This document shows positions 26,911-62,057 of a DNA stretch of 64,000 nucleotides, piece after piece (the stretch's first letter is position 1; every line of letters begins with the position of its first letter). The stretch spans positions 393,452,001-393,516,000 of the forward strand of contig OZ024740.1 of the NCBI GenBank assembly GCA_964016885.1. Direction: 5' to 3'. The notes beneath the pieces are model-generated. The model made no database searches and was not told the DNA's origin. It saw only the letters and a list, made by a program, of their open reading frames with translations. The position numbers were made by a program, and so were the translations under genes. The DNA comes from Eledone cirrhosa. Taxonomy: Eukaryota.

Positions 26911-29125
26911 CGTGAGGTGTTCAGGATTGCTAGGCAATGTGTCAAAGAAAACCGTGATATTGTCGGGGGGAAGTGTGTCCTTAATGATGATGGTGTACTT
27001 GCCATCACTGACGCTGATAAGAAGGTAGCTTGGAAGTGTCACTACGAAAGGCTACTAAATGAGGAGAATAAATGGGAGAAAGACAGTCTCCCCCATATCG
27101 ATCCAATAGAGGGACCAGCAGTGCTAGTTGAAGGTAGTATAATAAGTAAGGCAATCAAAGATATGAAAACAGGTAAGGCGGCTGAGCCTTCGGAAATAGT
27201 TGCTGAAATGTTGAAAGCATCTGGAACGGTGGGACACACTATGGTCACCCGGATAGTAAACCAAGTCATACAGAATGGGGCCGTTCCGAAGGACTGGCGT
27301 ATCAGCATCATCATTAACTGCTACAAGGGTAAAGGAGATGCCCTAGATAGGGGTAACTATAGAGGCATTAAATTAATCGACCAGGTCATGAAGGTCACAG
27401 AAAAAGTAATAGCGCAGCTAATCAGAGAACGAATTGATCTAGATGAAATGCAGTTCGGGTTTGTGTCAGGTAAAAGTACCACAGACGCTCTTTTCATTGT
27501 ACTACAGGAGAAGTACCTAGCTAAAAGTAAACCCCTATACTTAGCTTTTGTCGACTTGGAGAAAGCCTTCGACAGAGTCCCCCGTTCCATTATCTGGTGG
27601 GCTCTTAGAAAACTAGGTGTTGACGAATGGCTTGTGAGAGCTATACAAGCCATGTATAAAGAAACAGTCAGCAAGTTAACAACGAATATAGTGAAGAGTT
27701 TAGCGTAAAAGTTGGTGTTCATCAGGGCTCCGTTCTTAGCCCCCTACTATTTATTATTGCCCTTCAGGCTATAACAGAGGAGTTCAAGACCGGCTGCCCA
27801 TGGGAACTCCTATACGCAAATGATCTAACGCTCATAGCTGAATCAATGGCTGAACTAGAGAAGAAATTCCAAACATGGAAGCATGGCCTAGAATCAAAAG
27901 GCCTTAAAGTTAACTTGTCTAAGTTTGTAGGAAGGAAAATAGGGCACCAGTCCCATCTGGGAAATGGCCATGCTCAGTGTGTAGGAAAGGAGTAGGCAGA
28001 AACTCCATTTTATGTCCCAAATGCAAAGTATGGGTGCATAAAAGATGTAGTGGGATCACAGGTAAGCTAACAAAGAACATAGATTTTATATGTGGCCGGT
28101 GCTCTGGTGCAATAAGTAGCAGCAAGTGCCCACGGAATACTAGCTCATTCCATTGCACAGATGGTTCTATAGAAATAGTGGACACCTTCCATTACCTGGG
28201 TGACAAAATCAGCAGTGGGGGAGGGTGCTCTGAAAGTACAGTAGCTAGAGTCAGAACGGGATGGGAAAAGTTCAGAGAGCTTATATCACTATTGGCTGCT
28301 CAAGGGTTCTCTCTAAAAATGAAAGGCAGGCTGTATGATGCCTGCATACGAACAGCAATGTTACATGGCAGTGAGACCTGGGAATTGTGTGCAGAGGATA
28401 TACGCAGACTGGAGAGGAACGAATCTTGCATGCTCCGCTGGATGTGTAATATACGTGAACGGCAAAGCATAAATGAACTAAGGGAGAAATTAGGAATAAG
28501 AGGGATCAGATGTTGTTTACTCGAGAGAAGACTACGTTGGTACGGTTATGTGATGTGCATGAAAGATGACAGCTGTATAAAAAAGTGCAGGGCGATAAAA
28601 ATAGACGGTAGCCACGGAGTAAGCAGACACAGAAAAACCTGGGACGACTTGATAAATTCCGACCTCACACACTTACACCTCTCCAAGACAATGTTACTGG
28701 ACCAAGATCTTTGGCGCTACACAGTAATACAGAAGACCTGCCTTGCCTAAGTACAAAGCGAAACCTACAGTCAGTAGGCACCTCTAACAAAAATACACCC
28801 TTTCCCACTACCCCCACCCTATCCCCACCACCCCCTTCAATGTAAAGTTATGTTGGTACCACAACATCCAGTCCGAAACAAATGAGGTTGTGTAGGTGTC
28901 ACAACAAAAAAACACACAGTCCACGCTGTAATGTGGCCGTGTAGGTAACACAGTAAAAACCTCCCAGTCCACACTGTAAACGTGGTTGGTGTTAGGAAGG
29001 GCATCCAGCCGTAGAAAGTCCTATATGAGCAGGACAACCAATCTTGCCTCAAGTGGGAAAACTCCCGTCCAAAACCATGCAAGCGTGGAAGATGGACGTT
29101 AAATGATGATGATGATGATGATGAT
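26911..29125 (+). mobile_element. 5'-truncated RTE-clade LINE with a PHD finger inside the RT (inactive copy)
   Basis: RT motifs YKGKGD, NYRGIKL, QFGF, FVDLEKAFD, GVHQGSVLSP, catalytic YADD mutated to YAND (27813), FHYLGD, HGSETW; two frameshifts; 3'UTR and (GAT)n tail. Confidence 0.92.
26917..28750 (+). pseudogene. Frameshifted RT-PHD ORF of the RTE element
   Basis: ORFs 26917-27708 and 27977-28750 are joined by frameshifts at about 27680 and 27920. Confidence 0.88.
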
Positions 29126-35477: not shown

Positions 35478-36087
35478 ATGGTGGCTGCCAACTCGTTTTC
35501 GAGTATGGCCACTACTTTATATCCATGTAGGAGAACCCCTACCGATGCGCTGAACGAGTGTGACTTTTTAGTCCAGCCAGCAACTTGAAAACTCTGGTAC
35601 AAACACTACACTTGTGACAATTATTGACACATAGTGCTGGGCCCATGGTACCATGTGACGACAAGTGCAGAGAGATCTCCAGATATAAATGCCTGTGCCG
35701 TGAAGCTTTTATAGTGAGCACAGGCACTGCACAAAGCCAGTCCCACTCTCTTAACCAAGATGATATTTACCAAAAAGAAGAACAAGTCAACATCATTGGA
35801 TACCATCAGGGTTGCAGGTGTTATATCAGAGTTTTTCTTCTCCTAGAATTCTGCCTTGACAAAAGCTAAGGGGTCATCTCTCCCGGTGATTTTGGATGGC
35901 CATTGACTTTTAAGAGCTCCTTTGCCCTTTGACAGGTTTTGTTTTTTGTCCTGCAGGATGTCCAAAGTCACCCTCCTCACCAAGAAACCTTGGTGGGGTT
36001 GCCAGTTTAGTCGCCAACAACCCGACCATGGGACAGGTTGTTCTAGAATACATGTTACCAGTAGCACCAACTGGTGACCTGACCTAA
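35478..36087 (-). mobile_element. Bipartite non-autonomous RTE/BovB derivative (5'UTR fused to C-terminal zinc finger and 3' end)
   Basis: Minus strand TTCTAGGAGAAGAAAAACTCTGA..CCAATGATGTTGA..AGAGAGTGGGA..GCACAGGCA matches 58340-58545; then CSVCTRVFKLLAGLKSHTRSAH and TGGCCATACTCGAAAACGAG match 61870-62055. Confidence 0.8.
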
Positions 36088-36680: not shown

Positions 36681-36721
36681 GTATATATATATACATATAT
36701 ATAAATACATATATATACATA
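36088..36721. repeat. TATACA-type compound satellite
   Basis: Direct reading; explains the Y/I/H/C/M-rich ORFs. Confidence 0.95.
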
Positions 36722-38187
36722 TGAACTCCTATACGCAGATGACCTAACGCTCATAGCTGAATCAATGGCCGAGCTAGAGAAGAAATTCCAAACATGGAAG
36801 CATGGACTAGAATCAAAAGGCCTTAAAATTAACATGGCTAAGACTAAAGTTCTAGTTTGTAGGAAAGAAAATAAGGCGCCGGTCCCTTCCGGGAAATGGC
36901 CATGCTCAGTGTGTAGGAAAGGCGTAGGTAGAAACTCCATTTTATGTCCCAAATGCAAAGTATGGGTGCATAAAAGATGTAGTGGGATCACAGGTAAGCT
37001 AACTAAGAACACGGATTTTACATGTGGCCGGTGCTCTGGTGCAATAAGTAGCAGCAAGTGCCCACAAAATACTAGCTCTTTCAACTGCGCAGAGGGTTCT
37101 ATAGAAATAGTGGACAGCTTCCGTTACCTGGGTGACAAAATCAGCAGTGGGGGAGGGTGCTCCGAAAGTACAGTAGCTAGAGTCAGAACTGGATGGAAAA
37201 AGTTCAGAGAGCTTATACCACTATTAGCCGTTAAAGGGTTCTCCCTAAAAGTGAAAGGCAGGTTGTATGATGCCTGCATACGAACAGCAATGTTGCATGG
37301 CAGTGAGACCTGGGCATTGGGTGCAGAGGATATACGCAGACTAGAGAGGAACGAAGCTTGCATGCTCCGCTGGATGTGTAATAGTAATATACGCGAACGG
37401 CAAAGCATAAACGAACTAAGGAAAAAATTAGAAATAAGAGGGATCAGATGTTGTTTACTCGAGAGAAGGCTACGTTGGTATGGTCACGTGATGCGCATGA
37501 AAGACGACAGCTGTATAAACAAAGTGCAGGGCAATAAAGATAGATGGTAGCCACGGAGTAGGCAGACCCAGAAAAACCTGGGACGAGCTGATAAATTCCG
37601 ACCTCACACACTTACACCTCTCCAAGACAATGTCACTGGACCGAGACCTTTGGCGGTACTCAGTAACAGAGAAGACCCGCGTTTCCTAAATACAAAGTAA
37701 AACCTACTACAGTCAGTAGGCATCTCTAACAAAATACACTCCCGTCCCACCACCCCCACCCCATCCACACCGCCCCTTTCAATGTAAAGTTATGTTGGTG
37801 CCACAAAATCCAGGCCGAAACAAATGAGATCGTGTAGGTGTCACGAAAAAAAAAACACATAGTCCACGCTGTAATGTGACCGTGTAGGCAACACGGTAAA
37901 AACGTCCCAGTCCCACACTGTAAATGTGGTTGGTGTTAGGAAGGGCATCCAGCTGTAGAAAACCTGCCAGACAGTCCACGCTGTAATGTGGCCGTGTAGG
38001 CAACACGGTAAAAACCTCCCAGCCCCACACTGTAAATGTGGTTGGTGTTAGGAAGGGCATCCAACTGTAGAAAACCCGCCAGACAGTCCTATGCGAGCAA
38101 GACAACCACTCTTGCCTCAAGTGGGAAAACTCCCGTCCAAACCCATGCAAGCATGGAACACGGACGTTAAACGATGATGATGATGAT
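36722..38187 (+). mobile_element. 5'-truncated RTE-PHD LINE
   Basis: Starts at ELLYADD, then [13 protein letters not shown] finger, FRYLGD, HGSETW; one frameshift near 37520; 3'UTR with ~112-bp internal duplication; (GAT)n tail. Confidence 0.93.
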
Positions 38188-38783
38188 ATACATACATATA
38201 TATGTATATATATATACATATATATATATATAAATACATATATATACATATATATGTATATATATACATATATATGTATATATATACATATATATTATAG
38301 AAGTGGATGGATACCTCAACAGGTACAATGTACTTGTAGAAATATTCAAGTTGTTTATAATACATGTGGTTCAATGGCACTAATTCGAGATACCAGAACA
38401 AGAAAATTGTTTAATAACCGTTTGTTTCGCTACTTTTATATACATATATATGTATATATATACATATATATGTATATATATACATATATATGTATATATA
38501 TACATATATATGTATATATATACATATATATAAATACATATATATAAATACATATATATACATATATATAAATACATATATATACATATATATGTATATA
38601 TATACATATATATGTATATATATACATATATATAAATACATATATATATATATATATATAAATACATATATATATATATATATATAAATACATATATATA
38701 CATATATATGTATATATATACATATATATGTATATATATACATATATATAAATACATATATATAAATACATATATATACATAT
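38188..38783. repeat. TATACA/TATGTA satellite with a ~140-bp unique insert (38296-38437)
   Basis: 20-bp higher-order unit TACATATATATGTATATATA. Confidence 0.92.
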
Positions 38784-40846
38784 GTGCTAAACACACCCCA
38801 TTAAGAACTATAAACAAATCTAAGAGCAGAATCCCTAGAAATAGAAAAACACTCATCAGAAAAATTAAGAGAACGAACAAAAAAATCAACAAGCTGAAAT
38901 ACTGTCAGCAGCAACACATCAACTTGACTGCCATTTCATCACTAGAGATTAAAAAACATAACCTCCAAAACAACATAATGTCCCTCATCAACAATCAGAG
39001 AAGAGCTGAAGAGGCCTGGGCCATTGAGAAGATCAAACTCAATCCCAAAGTGTTCTTTTCATTTGCAAAAAAACACAAAATCACTGGCTCTACTGTTGGC
39101 CCTCTAATTGATGAAAATGGCACTCTTCAAGACAATGCTAAAACCATGGGTGAGATACTGCAGAAACAATACTGCTCTGTTTTCAGCAATCCTGATATGG
39201 CCGATCTGGGCTGTATCGGCGATGTTACTCCCCATTACACCTTATCGGACATAACGTTTGGCGCCCCTGATGTCTTGGCGGCAATAAAGGAAATCAAACA
39301 TAATTCAGCAGTAGGTCCCGATAGGTTCCCTGCTTGTGTCTTGAAGGCGTGTCAACACCAACTTGCTTCTCCTCTTGCCAATCTGTGGCGGAACTCACTG
39401 GATGCTGGATATGTGCCAGAAAACCTTCTATCCCAGTCTGTTGTCCCAGTTTTCAAAAAGGGAAACAAATCCCTTGCCGTGAATTACCGTCCAATCTCAC
39501 TCACCTCTCATATCATTAAGGTATTTGAGCGAGTGGTGAGATCGCGAATGACCCACTTCCTTGAGAGTAACAATATGCTGAACTCCAACCAGCATGGATT
39601 CCGTAATGGAAGGGATTGCCTGACGCAACTACTGCATCACTTTGATGACATTTTGAGAGCCTTGGGAGAGGGTTCCAACACTGATGTTATCTACCTTGAT
39701 TTCAGCAAGGCCTTTGACAGGGTTGATCATAACATTCTACTGAGAAAGCTGTCCAATATTGGTGTCACTGGAAAGCTGCTGCAGTGGATCAAGAGCTTCC
39801 TGTCAAACAGAACCCAACATGTTGTAGTTGAGGGAGTCAAATCAAGCCCAGCCAAAGTCAGTAGTGGAGTCCCACAAGGCACTGTGTTGGGCCCACTTCT
39901 CTTCATCATCTATATTAATGACATCACTGACATCATCAAACACAGCAACATTAAAATTTTCGCTGATGATTCCAAGCTCCAAAAGGTCATCAATGGCGTG
40001 GATGACCGGATAAGCCTTCAGTCAGACCTACTGGCTGTTACCCAATGGGCAGAAAAGAACAACATGTTACTGAACGAAGACAAATTCGAACTGATCCACT
40101 TTGGAAAAGAGGATGCTCTGAAACTCCCGTACTCCCTTCCCTCCGGGGAAACTCTCGTGGCATCTAACAACATCAGAGACTTGGGAGTAACCGTGGACAG
40201 CAACATAAGCTGGACCACGCATATAAGCAGCAAAGTTGACATGGCCCGCAGAATGTGTTCCTGGATCCTCAGAACCTTCCAGTCGAGAGATTCCCGCACC
40301 ATTATCCTTCTCTTCTCTACTTTCGCCCGACCACACCTTGAATACTGTTGTCCACTGTGGTCTCCCCACACGAAACAAAGTATCATGAAACTTGAAGCTC
40401 CTCAAAGGGCAATCACGAAAAAGATAGATGGCATGTCAGACCTTGACTACTGGGGTCGATTGGAAAACCTGAAACTTTACTCACTCCAACGTCGCCGTGA
40501 GCGTTATATTATCTGCATGATGTGGAAAATGTTCCATCATCACTGCCCAAATGATGTTGGCATCGCCTTCAAGATACACCCAAGGCTTGGGCCCCGTGCT
40601 ATCCGTCCCATTCAAAAATCTAAATCGCAACTCATAACAACAATACGGCACAATTATTTCACCTCAATCGGCCCTGCTCTCTTCAACATCACACCAGGAC
40701 ACGTCAAAACAGAAACTGACCACACAAGATTCAAGAAGTCTTTGGACAAATTCCTCCAAGTAATCCCGGACAAACCACCCACACCCGGATATGTCTCCGC
40801 AAACAGTAATTCTCTTCTCGAATGGGCCATGGTGCCCAAATCCTGA
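38784..40846 (+). CDS. CR1-group LINE ORF2, 5'-truncated (RT and C-terminal domain), uninterrupted
   Basis: [68 protein letters not shown]; the annotated N-terminal 25 aa are satellite read-through. Confidence 0.93.
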
Positions 40847-57541: not shown

Positions 57542-58112
57542 GAGAGAGTAGTAAAACAAATTGATTCATCACTGTGGTAGTAGCAGAGAAGAAAGCGATA
57601 GCTAAATACAAAAGAAAGATGAGGAGATGAAAGTGCGATGAAGAGTAAAAAGAGGTGCTGAAAGCTTTTAATTATTTTGACTTAATAAATTAATAGGCGA
57701 CCAGTGCTTTGAGAAAACAACACCAAACTTCAGCACTGAGCATATCAAAAAATCGAAATAACAGAAGTAAGCTTTATTCCATCATTATGTTTTTCTGTTT
57801 TTTTTCTGTTCAAATTCTAGCTGCCTCATGAGGTCATAGCTGTTGCATAACAGTTATCACCAAAATATATATAACAACGAATATAATTAAATGAAGTTCA
57901 TTTTAACCTGTTGACTTATATTTATTGTTTTTACATATGTCTGTGTGTGTGTGTATGCATATATAGATATGTATGTATATATATTTGTATGTATATATGC
58001 ATGTATGCAATTATAATAATACTGGACTGTAGTACGATCGGCTTCAACTATACAAACTCTTGAAAGTCAACAGTTGACATAATCTTGTAATCTTGTAGCA
58101 GTAATGACGGTA

Positions 58113-58151
<39 letters not shown>

Positions 58152-58273
58152 AGTAGAGTAGCGTGTGTGTGTTTGTTTGTATGTATGAGTGTTGCTGTGT
58201 GAGCGCATATGTATGCGCGTGTGTGTATGTCGTATGTATAAGTGTCAATAAGTGATTTTTTTTTTTTTTTTTT

Positions 58274-61200
58274 GCGCGGGGACATAGAAATAATCAGGCT
58301 GGATGCCCGATCGCGCAGTTAAACCACTGGGAGTGAAGAACCCCTAGCCCTTGTCAGAGCATTCTTCTAGGAGAAGGCATCTCAGGAAACTGGGTTAACT
58401 CTGACATAAAACCTGCGGCTCAGTATTACCAATGATGTTGATCTTTTCTTCTTTTCGGGTTATAGCTACTGTCGCTCAGAGAGTGGGATTGGCTCAGTGC
58501 ACAGTCTTTCTTCACTTTAAAAATATTCGTCATGCACAGGCATTGCACGAGTGCATTAATAATTATTAATAGTGTATTATTAATAGTGTATTATTATTAT
58601 TATTATTATTACTATTATTATTACTTTTTTTTTTTTTTTTTTTTTTTCCCCCCAATTCAATGATGTTCCGGAACAATATAAAAGAGATAATTGGCAATTT
58701 AGGTTCTGGAACAAAAAAAATCATTGGTAATAAGGGCAGGGGCCCCAGGTTATCACAGCCTGGGCCCGCTCGTCATCGTGCCATTGTAATAGAGCCAAAC
58801 AAGGCATTTAATCTTGGCTGCTGGAACGTACGGACGCTGCTTGACAGGGATTCCTTGGAGCGTCCTGAACGAAGGACCGCTCTTGTTGCAAAGGAGCTTC
58901 GACATTACGATCTTGACATCGTGGCTTTATCTGAGACGAGGTTAGCTGGAGATGGTCATCTTACGGAATTTTGTGGAGAATATACATTCTTCTGGAAAGG
59001 AAGAGATGAAGGAACCAGAAGAGAGGCTGGGGTAGGATTTGCTGTTAAGACTGTACTTGTGAACAAATTAGAAGAATTCCCAGTAGGGATTAGTGAGCGT
59101 CTTATGTCCATGAGAGTTCCGCTGGACAAGGGAAGATATGCTACCTTGGTGAGTGTGTATGCTCCAACTATGAGTTCTGTCGATGAGGAAAAGGTGTCCT
59201 TTTACCATGCCTTGAAAGGTGTTTTAAGAAATATCCCTCAGGCAGACAAATTCATCGTGCTTGGTGACTTTAATGCTAGAGTGGGTAGGGATTTTAACAC
59301 ATGGAATGTAATCGGAAGACATGGGGTGACAAAGTGTAACAGCAATGGTATGCTCCTGCTGCAGTGGTGTGAGGAGCTGGATCTGTGTGTTACCAACACC
59401 ATGTTCCAACAAAAGAACAAATTCAAGACCACATGGATGCATCTAAGGAATGGCATCTTTTGGACTACGTCCTAATCAGGATGCGTGACAGACAGGATGT
59501 GCAGTGTGTTCGTGTTCTTCGTGGAGCTGAGTGCTGGACGGACCACCGCCTGGTACGCACAAAAGTGAAACTAATCACTAAACGTAAAATCCGGGCTCCT
59601 GGTGTTGCCCTGCCCAAAAGATTGAATGCTGCTCGTCTTAAGGATAAAAATGTGAAGAGGACATTGGAAGAAGAGATGCAGGCTGCAGATCTTGGTGAGG
59701 ATTGGCCGACCCTTAAAAAGTCGGTTTATGATGTAGGCAGGCGTGTTCTGGGATTGGCGCAGAGGAAACATCAGGACTGGTTTAATGAGAATGATGTACA
59801 TATAGAAGACTTGTTGGCTGATAAGAGGCGTGCTCTGTCACGCTACTTGACGGCAAAGCCAAAGGAGAGGAATATGTTGCATGAGGAACCCAGGGATGTA
59901 AAATCACGTGTTAGGCGGAGTCTTTCTCAGATGAAGGATCAGTGGTGGAGTGAGAAGGCTGGTGAGATACAAACTGCGTCTGATTCCAATAACACAAAGC
60001 TGTTGTACAGTCTCTTGCGTGAGGTTTATGGACCGTCTTCTTCTCTGGTGACACCGCTTCGCAGCAAGGATGGCAAAGAACTTCTTCGTGACTCACAAGG
60101 AATTCTACGAAGGTGGCAAGAGCACTTTGATGATCTTTTGAATCAGCCGTCTGTCGTCAGTGAAGATTTCCTCAATCTCATTCCAGAAAGTCCTGTGAAA
60201 GTAGCTCTCGCAGAACCTCCGACGCTTGTGGAGGTTGTAGTGGCTATTTCGAAGCTGAACAGTGGAAGATCTCCAGGTATGGATGGCATACATGCTGGGC
60301 TCCTACAATATGGTGGTGAGAGACTCCTGCAACATCTTCACTCTTTGTTTGGCAGGATATGGGCTAATGAATCCGTACCTGAGGACTGGAGAGATGCAGT
60401 AATGGTGGTCTTGTACAAGGGAAAGGGTAACAGGAACGATTGTGAGAACTACAGAGGTATATCATTGCTTTCTGTCGTAGGGAAAGTTTTATGTAGGGTG
60501 CTTCTGGACCGTCTGCTGACACACATTGCAGATTGTGTTCTTCCTGAAAGTCAATCTGGTTTTCGTGCTGGACGCGGCACTACTGATATGATCTTCTCAG
60601 CTAGACAGCTCCAGGAGAAGTGCATGGAACAAGGCTTGGATCTGTATCAGGTTTTTGTCGATCTGACAAAAGCTTTCGATACTGTTAACAGAGATGCATT
60701 ATGGAAGGTTCTCCAGAAACTTGGTTGTCCTGATAAGTTCCTTGCTTTAGTTAGGTCTTTCCATGACGACATGAAGGCTTGGGTTAATGTCGGGGGTAAC
60801 ATATCGGAGCCTATCTCAGTAAAAAATGGAGTGAAACAGGGGGATATTCCAGCACCGACCCTGTTTGCCATATACTTTGCAATGGTTATGGTGTTTACAT
60901 CCGATATCGAACCTCAGGCAGCATATTTAACATCAGGTGCTTTGCTGCGAAGACAAAAGTATTTACATCAATCATAAGAGACCTCTTGTATGCAGATGAT
61001 TGCGATCTTGTAGTGCACACAGAGAGTGATATGCAGCACATTTTGAATGCATTTTCTGATGCTTGCACTGCCCTAGGTCTGACTGTCAGTCTCAAGAAAA
61101 CCGTTGTCATGTACCAGCCTGCCCCTGGTAAGCAGTACACTGAACCAAACATCTATGTGTATGGCAAACGACTTGGAGTGGTTGATCAGTTTGTCTACCT

Positions 61201-61947
61201 GGGAAGCACTGTCAATCGATACAGCAACCTTGACAGTGAAATCTCACTTAGGATTAGGAAAGCAAGTGATGCTTTCGGAAAGCTAGAAAGGCGACTCTGG
61301 GGTCGGCGAGACATATGCAGGAGGACAAAGGTAAAGGTATACAGGGCATGTGTGCTCTCTTGTCTTCTTTATGCCTGCGAGACCTGGGTCACATATCGAC
61401 ACCACCTTAAGCAATTGGAGCGTTTCCATCAGATGTGTCTCAGACGGATCCATGGCGTTCACTGGAGCGACCACATCAGTGATGTCGAGATTTTGGAAAG
61501 CTCTATGTGTGACAGTATAGAAGCTCTTGTGCTTAAGCAACGACTCCGTTCGAGTGGTCACCTTGCCAGGATGAAGGATTCTAGAATACCAAAACAACTC
61601 TTTTATGGAGAGTTGGTTAAAGGAAAACGGCCGCCACATAAACCAAAAAAGAGGTATAAGGATTCCTTGAAAGCCTCTCTGAAAGACACTAACATCTCTG
61701 CTGATACATGGGAGAATATTGCTGCTGATCGTAATAAATGGAGAAAGACTGTATATGAGGGAAAAGTTGCCTTTGAGGCATCTCGAATCGCATACGAGAA
61801 AGTAAAGCGGGATGTGAGGAAGGGCATTGCTGTTGCACTTCCAGACGGCGAGGGTCTTCCTATGGTGCTGACATGCAGTGTATGTACGAGACTCTGCCTA
61901 AGCAAAGCTGGACTCGAAAGTCATCTTCGCAGTCATTATTTTCTTTT

Positions 61948-61986
<39 letters not shown>

Positions 61987-62057
61987 TTTCTTTTTTCTTT
62001 TTTTTTTCTTTCTCCTCGTGCAATGGCCATACTCGATAACGAGGGGGCAGCCATCAT
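58274..62057 (+). mobile_element. Near full-length RTE/BovB-type LINE
   Basis: 5'UTR with TTCTAGGAGAAGG..AACTCTGA motif; APE endonuclease; RT; C-terminal CxxC..HxxxH finger; terminal hairpin CTCG-ATAA-CGAG. Confidence 0.93.
58660..61937 (+). pseudogene. APE endonuclease-RT-zinc finger ORF broken by two frameshifting deletions
   Basis: WNVRTL, ALSETR, YAPT, GDFNARVG, HLLDY, TDH (APE); NYRGISLL, QSGFR, FVDLTKAFD, GVKQG, YADD, YLGS (RT); frameshifts at about 59443 and 60890; no internal stops. Confidence 0.92.

Follow-up and report, generated by a model that had tools for sequence, protein, structure and literature searches.

A predicted long-range helix between the 5' leader and the 3' terminal hairpin is widespread in animal RTE retrotransposons

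Introduction

A LINE copy and a shorter relative in the window (the whole stretch of 64,000 nucleotides that was analysed) raise the question of why elements derived from RTE retrotransposons keep both a piece of the 5'UTR and the 3' end. The original prediction was that RTE RNA is closed by a helix between the 5'UTR and the 3'UTR, next to the hairpin bound by the reverse transcriptase (RT). In the sections available to us, Kojima 2018 (PMC5786205) states that bipartite RTE derivatives arise 'for unknown reasons' and points to causes related to transcription. The RTE LINEs and the bipartite derivatives Bov-A, WALLSI and ManaSINE presented there resemble the elements described here in their single ORF for APE endonuclease and RT, and in derivatives composed of a 5'UTR piece and a 3' end, with a 5'UTR domain that ends at the same anchor; they differ in that those sections propose no pairing between the two parts. 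A covarying clasp would be a concrete and cheaply testable answer to why RTE-derived SINEs and other derivatives keep these two pieces.

Results

The LINE in the window (Table 1) belongs to a family with 4286 first-look candidates in the host genome (3.0 Gb in 1796 contigs), whose repeat content suggests that the host is a cephalopod. From about 58000-58050 to 61936 it is ~95% identical to the intact copies L121 and L128. Intact sister copies have one ORF of 1181 aa, comprising endonuclease, RT and C-terminal zinc fingers; the Pfam domains PF03372/PF14529 and PF00078 were found in this ORF in L128 and in the pieces of the window copy, and a search for a separate ORF1 found no further ORF of 150 aa upstream within the window LINE. 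The short terminal hairpin and tandem-repeat tail, with no poly(A), are traits of the RTE clade. The 5'UTR domain is homologous to metagenome RTE leaders (nhmmer) and is, by eye, common to RTE-3_AMi, RTE-3_PM, RTE-14_Lch and AviRTE in the published sequences available to us. The copy had been taken as autonomous; it is in fact defective, because its ORF is split over three frames and, compared with two intact copies, some 450-600 bp from the 3' part of the family sequence is missing before the 3' arm. Fragments of other LINE families lie at 26911-28750, 36705-37550 and 38636-40846 of the window, and include a 736-codon open frame with RT-like motifs.

Table 1. Positions in the window of the LINE, the short element and their parts
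Feature	Position	Strand	Remarks
Defective copy of a high-copy RTE-type LINE family	58000..62056	+	~95% identity to intact L121 and L128; 5' boundary approximate
5'UTR domain, predicted pseudoknot	58478..58540	+	homologous in 13 metagenome loci; 16-row alignment
Pseudoknot stem 1	58482-58488 with 58510-58516	+	predicted
Pseudoknot stem 2	about 58497-58500 with 58534-58537	+	predicted
Clasp 5' arm	58541..58551	+	exact in 28/30 family loci
AT/ATT/T tract inside the 5' arm, family-specific	58552..58655	+	
Single ORF, APE endonuclease and RT, broken over three frames	58660..61935	+	zinc-finger tail partly deleted
T-rich tract, remnant of a microsatellite-rich 3'UTR	61936..62014	+	
Clasp 3' arm	62015..62025	+	reverse complement of the 5' arm
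Terminal hairpin and start of repeat tail	62026..62056	+	20-row alignment
Terminal hairpin, upper stem	62032-62043	+	short lower stem below a bulge
Short element, copy of a non-autonomous bipartite RTE family	35478..36085	-	leader, zinc-finger tail of a sister ORF and 3' end
Short element, 5' arm	35676..35691	-	window copy without 4 nt found in most copies
Short element, 3' arm	35510..35534	-	directly before its terminal hairpin

As originally predicted, CATTGCACGAG at 58541-58551 is the exact reverse complement of 62015-62025, ~3.5 kb apart, and this holds family-wide; likewise, in the minus-strand short element, 35682-35689 and 35516-35523 are exact reverse complements over 8 nt at the same anchors. 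In the 3.8-kb window copy there are three further non-local inverted matches of at least 11 bp (~1.7 expected), and an 11-bp inverted match within one element alone is within chance. The match between the arms goes beyond chance because of its fixed position and its recurrence across elements. A 13-bp inverted match at 58424/58720 is private to the window copy and was rejected as a feature.

Within the window LINE's family, the full-length copies counted were chosen for long ORFs, and 22 of the 34 such loci examined have both arms. In four of the 22 the helix has 11 Watson-Crick pairs; in the other 18 it is weaker, with 8 Watson-Crick pairs, a G.U and an A-U. This shortened clasp occurs in a subfamily whose ORFs are intact (L126-L129, L132, L133, L288-L301) and whose UTRs are microsatellite-filled and variable in length. 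The short family, with 2021 first-look candidates and 40 scored at 97-100%, has an internal peptide that resembles the last zinc finger of the LINE ORF. Its helix has 15 bp with 3-4 G.U pairs in 25 of 30 copies; in the window copy 4 nt have been lost from the arm. The short relative's arms had been described as unrelated to those of the LINE, which is true of the inner part of the helix, where sequence differs and pairing is kept, but the outer 6 of the 15 bp are common to both, two of them as G.U. Protein searches for a parent LINE of this family, in which matches were saturated by the main family, found none. An Rfam scan of the short element's head (35930-36085, minus strand) found no self-cleaving ribozyme, and nothing meaningful emerged from an Rfam scan of the leader and short elements.

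The mini family, a third, multi-copy family (712 first-look candidates, 40 scored), fuses the leader of the LINE to its 3' end, leaving an AT-rich loop of ~30 nt between the arms; this junction is present in 29 of 30 loci. The mini family matches the window LINE family, its candidate autonomous parent. Its predicted helix is a perfect 12 bp in which pair 11 is U-A, against G-C in the LINE, and its fold has z = -3.2. Leader, both arms and 3' hairpin are seen at L229:1440-1636 and in L228-L257; comparison of the mini element with contigs of four runs gave no usable two-sided change. Both families show the bipartite derivative trait of leader plus 3' end, no functional ORF and many near-identical copies, and both retain the two arms through sequence change. 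Where variants recur inside the helices of the host genome, most of them replace a pair by G.U on the sense strand. At the equivalent sites, two more distant RTE families of this genome have 8-bp matches, with the arms of one match taken from different copies. Among the second and third RTE families of the genome, L300 has lost the 5' arm of its leader by deletion, while L308 (1480-1950), L317 and L322 are internal-deletion copies with both arms kept.

Relatives were collected by protein alignment, giving 80 metagenome loci and 7 from prokaryote assemblies, and of these 87 loci the counts took in those with both ends. To place the 5' anchor we used an iterated profile (HMM) of the leader domain whose seed excluded the arm, and the 3' window was placed by the terminal hairpin, whose positions in L142 and L161 were set by hand. 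L195, L199 and L211, in which a regular expression did not match the terminal hairpin, and L158, a duplicate of L157, were left out; L150, L164, L188 and L197 have no 3' end and were used for the 5' domain only. In these unrelated RTEs too, the arms at the anchors pair with their own partners. In the 10 HMM-anchored elements, duplexes with the own partner average -23.4 kcal/mol, against -10.1 kcal/mol with foreign partners, and the own partner ranks first in 9, the tenth being beaten only by a close sister (permutation p about 5e-6, as low as the test can reach). In all 18 elements, 8 of them anchored by motif or by eye, the corresponding means are -21.6 and -10.6 kcal/mol, with the own partner first in 15. 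In 17 of the 18, at most 16 of 500 dinucleotide shuffles reached the energy of the own duplex; L151 fails this test, with 143 of 500. The leader of L151 (L151:1-250) is divergent, the start of the contig resembles an inverted piece of leader, and this is the sole tested element without a clear clasp.

The signal is mostly lost when the windows are moved by 30-60 nt, and the positions of the arms are fixed, the 5' arm directly after the 5' domain and the 3' arm 0-5 nt upstream of the hairpin base. Between elements, identity of the arms over their first 12 nt is 26%; the RTs of the tested elements are 46-56% identical to that of the window family and spread over about ten lineages in a tree confined to unnamed elements. 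When 20 elements are placed in the best ungapped register, which was selected by score and makes the pair counts descriptive, helix positions 3-8 are paired in 16-19 elements, each position showing four to six types of pair. A scan of 750 nt without anchors gave a weaker result than the anchored test (overall p about 1e-4): the best loose partner of the window LINE lay elsewhere and ranked 14 of 18, and the cognate region beat all segments of the own ORF in only 10 of 17 elements. The tracts just inside the arms had been described as unstructured, which fits the 3' T-rich tract (predicted unpaired, 0.0 kcal) but not the 5' tract, which has a weak AT hairpin (-12.0 kcal). T-rich tracts are absent from the metagenome relatives inspected and were rejected as a general feature.

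Published sequences were read by eye, without a script and with the observer bias that this brings, in the part of the supplement to Kojima 2018 (PMC5786205) available to us. Each of the six full-length LINEs in which both ends can be seen has a pair of complementary arms, one closing the 5' segment shared with SINEs and the other opening the 3' segment. By eye, the arms have 10 bp in BovB and 9 bp each in RTE-3_AMi and RTE-1_PSi; in RTE1_LA about 15 of 16 positions are paired, with wobbles, and the arms of RTE-4_PPo and RTE-11_AMi are shorter or interrupted. Two-sided changes were read in the same way between BOVA2 and BovB and between RTE-1_PSi and RTE-3_AMi, and the junctions of CoeSINE4/5, HaSE1/2, WALLSI1/2, MonoRep87A/B and SINE2_Gav read as hairpins of the two arms. 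The bird SINEs ManaSINE1 and GymnSINE, as far as supplement 5 of PMC4844689 was available to us, keep little beyond the two arms at the junction.

The elements flanking the clasp also have conserved predicted structures. The leader domain fits two interleaved stems, that is, a pseudoknot, with an A-rich linker and ending exactly at the clasp (window 58478-58540; L141, L142, L144, L149, L166 and others). In its 16-row alignment, 86% of cells are paired, 6 of 12 pairs have two-sided changes and 0 of 500 shuffles reached the covariation score, although the pseudoknot was derived from the same 16 rows on which it was scored and kinship inflates such scores. For the terminal hairpin, 83.8% of cells in the 20-row alignment are paired, with two-sided changes in 6 of 8 pairs, and again 0 of 500 shuffles reached the score. 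Two structured modules are joined by the clasp with almost no spacer, which suggests that clasp and modules may stack as one protein-binding surface. In the minimum free energy fold of a whole intact copy, a prediction that is weak at 4.3 kb, the clasp is not formed and the 5' arm pairs elsewhere in the 3'UTR. A second long-range helix, from the 5' domain to the extreme 3' end, was hinted at by one fold and was not supported (p=0.22).

Discussion

The complementarity of the arms is very probably a selected feature, and our comparative data strongly support a conserved helix between the 5'UTR and the 3' end, next to the terminal hairpin, which has been kept through sequence turnover and retained by derivatives. 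As a prediction from sequence, the clasp is widespread in animal RTEs. The helix originally proposed beside the RT-binding hairpin stands in its comparative core, in 18 elements by script and in published families by eye, but it does not join the termini: it encloses the ORF-containing body and leaves 300-500 nt of leader outside, which makes it a clasp and not a link between the extreme ends. Our preferred reading, to which we give a probability of about 0.6, is that the two arms pair on the element RNA as a long-range clasp, linking the conserved domain of the 5' leader with the hairpin at the 3' terminus, and that the resulting composite site would be bound by the element's RT to start target-primed reverse transcription. 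The helix would form in cells, stack on the 3' hairpin and be read by the protein, and would favour RNAs with both ends intact. It may also bring the inner boundaries together, such that template jumps would yield deletion derivatives keeping both ends. The clasp is a likely explanation of the retention of both ends in RTE derivatives.

The helix may instead serve the mRNA, either as a closed loop that promotes translation initiation on, or stabilises, a transcript with neither cap nor poly(A), or as a switch between translation and reverse transcription. In the metagenome relatives inspected, the 5' arm sits immediately upstream of the region in which the ORF starts, and the 3' arm and the stop codon frequently overlap, where a ribosome would open the helix, and self-cleaving ribozymes are reported in RTE leaders (Ruminski 2011, cited in the sections of Kojima 2018, PMC5786205, available to us). 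However, the helix is kept with pair-preserving changes in non-coding derivatives, including tRNA-headed SINEs, which argues for a role in the template over one in translation and makes the mRNA role unlikely. Less probable again is that the pairing acts on cDNA, or at the completion of insertion, where it would hold the end of the first strand near the target site, rather than on template RNA at initiation. Strand tests on the arms are neutral and give no preference for sense, with the sense duplex better than the antisense in 4 of 18 elements (non-cognate baseline 32%) and 11 G.U against 17 A.C pairs (baseline 38%). Action on cDNA is at odds with the short family, whose duplex is far better as sense (-25.9) than as antisense (-16.1), with the G.U bias of the recurring own-genome variants and with the flanking structure, in that the predicted 5' stem of the leader domain has G.U in 9 cells and C.A in one, an excess that favours the sense strand for that domain; these three observations are the only ones that favour sense RNA. 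Very improbable is that the arms are a functionless by-product, of recurrent inverted copying between the ends or of chance and selective reading, kept in derivatives only because deletions fall nearby: an 11-bp inverted match is within chance in one element, and 8 of the 18 anchors, like every case from the literature, were placed by motif or by eye, but the HMM-anchored subset alone gives p of about 5e-6, shifted windows mostly lose the signal, and the helices differ from fresh copies in having bulges and single swapped pairs.

Recognition of the template by RT through a clasp would have parallels in other systems. R2 RNA has protein-binding 5' and 3' regions and, in flaviviruses, which are unrelated RNA viruses, there are cyclisation sequences and both RNA ends contribute to replication. 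Both resemble the clasp model in this contribution of the two ends, from which R2 differs in that its ends act through separate protein contacts and are not known to pair with each other. By analogy, the closest functional precedent is CYC5/CYC3 of Ty1, short complementary sequences near the RNA ends that, in the sections of PMC7969010 available to us, are required for cyclisation and retromobility. The RTE arms share this trait of cyclisation elements, being complementary near both ends and conserved by covariation. Ty1 is, in contrast, an LTR element that is tRNA-primed inside particles (same sections), whereas RTE is a non-LTR element in which the helix abuts the 3' hairpin; with its APE-type single ORF and repeat tail, the RTE described here would work like the Ty1 system and is not a member of it. 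The stringent LINEs UnaL2, ZfL2 and SART1 and the plant RTE hairpin (PMC5135761, PMC6007223) similarly have a covarying terminal hairpin before a repeat tail, and the models in the sections available to us use the 3' end alone, whereas here a leader 3.5-4 kb away would complete the site. We found no report of 5'-3' pairing in RTE in the literature, parts of which were available to us and in which a prior mention is possible, and it is not mentioned in the available parts of PMC7245038, PMC4844689, PMC5135761, PMC3531059, PMC13708176 and bioRxiv 10.1101/2022.11.04.512097; the RTE clasp is apparently undescribed.

The clasp would extend RNA cyclisation from LTR elements to non-LTR retrotransposons. 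We give even odds to the broader proposal that the whole animal RTE clade, BovB included, has its template recognised through a 5' pseudoknot, a kilobase-spanning clasp and the 3' hairpin, a site formed only with both ends present and acting as a cyclisation-dependent licence for reverse transcription. If true, such a licence would explain the bipartite rule of SINEs and give a design rule for RTE gene-writing templates. RTE-1_MD serves in RNA-only gene insertion, where each template contains both cognate UTRs, tuned empirically (PMC13708176, in the sections available to us); as such, matched arms would be a design rule there, and that assay a ready test bed.

The range of the clasp may have limits. 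In the sections of PMC6007223 available to us, the 3' region is reported as the only part that plant Au-like SINEs have in common with RTE, and the clasp rule may therefore not extend to plants. L195, L199 and L211 are distant elements with APE and RT (31-33% identity) and no matching terminal hairpin, and may mark a limit of the feature. A search of viral contigs found no relatives. Seven RTE-like RT genes (L221-L227) lie in prokaryote assemblies, mostly MAGs and one isolate scaffold, and are probably contamination by animal DNA.
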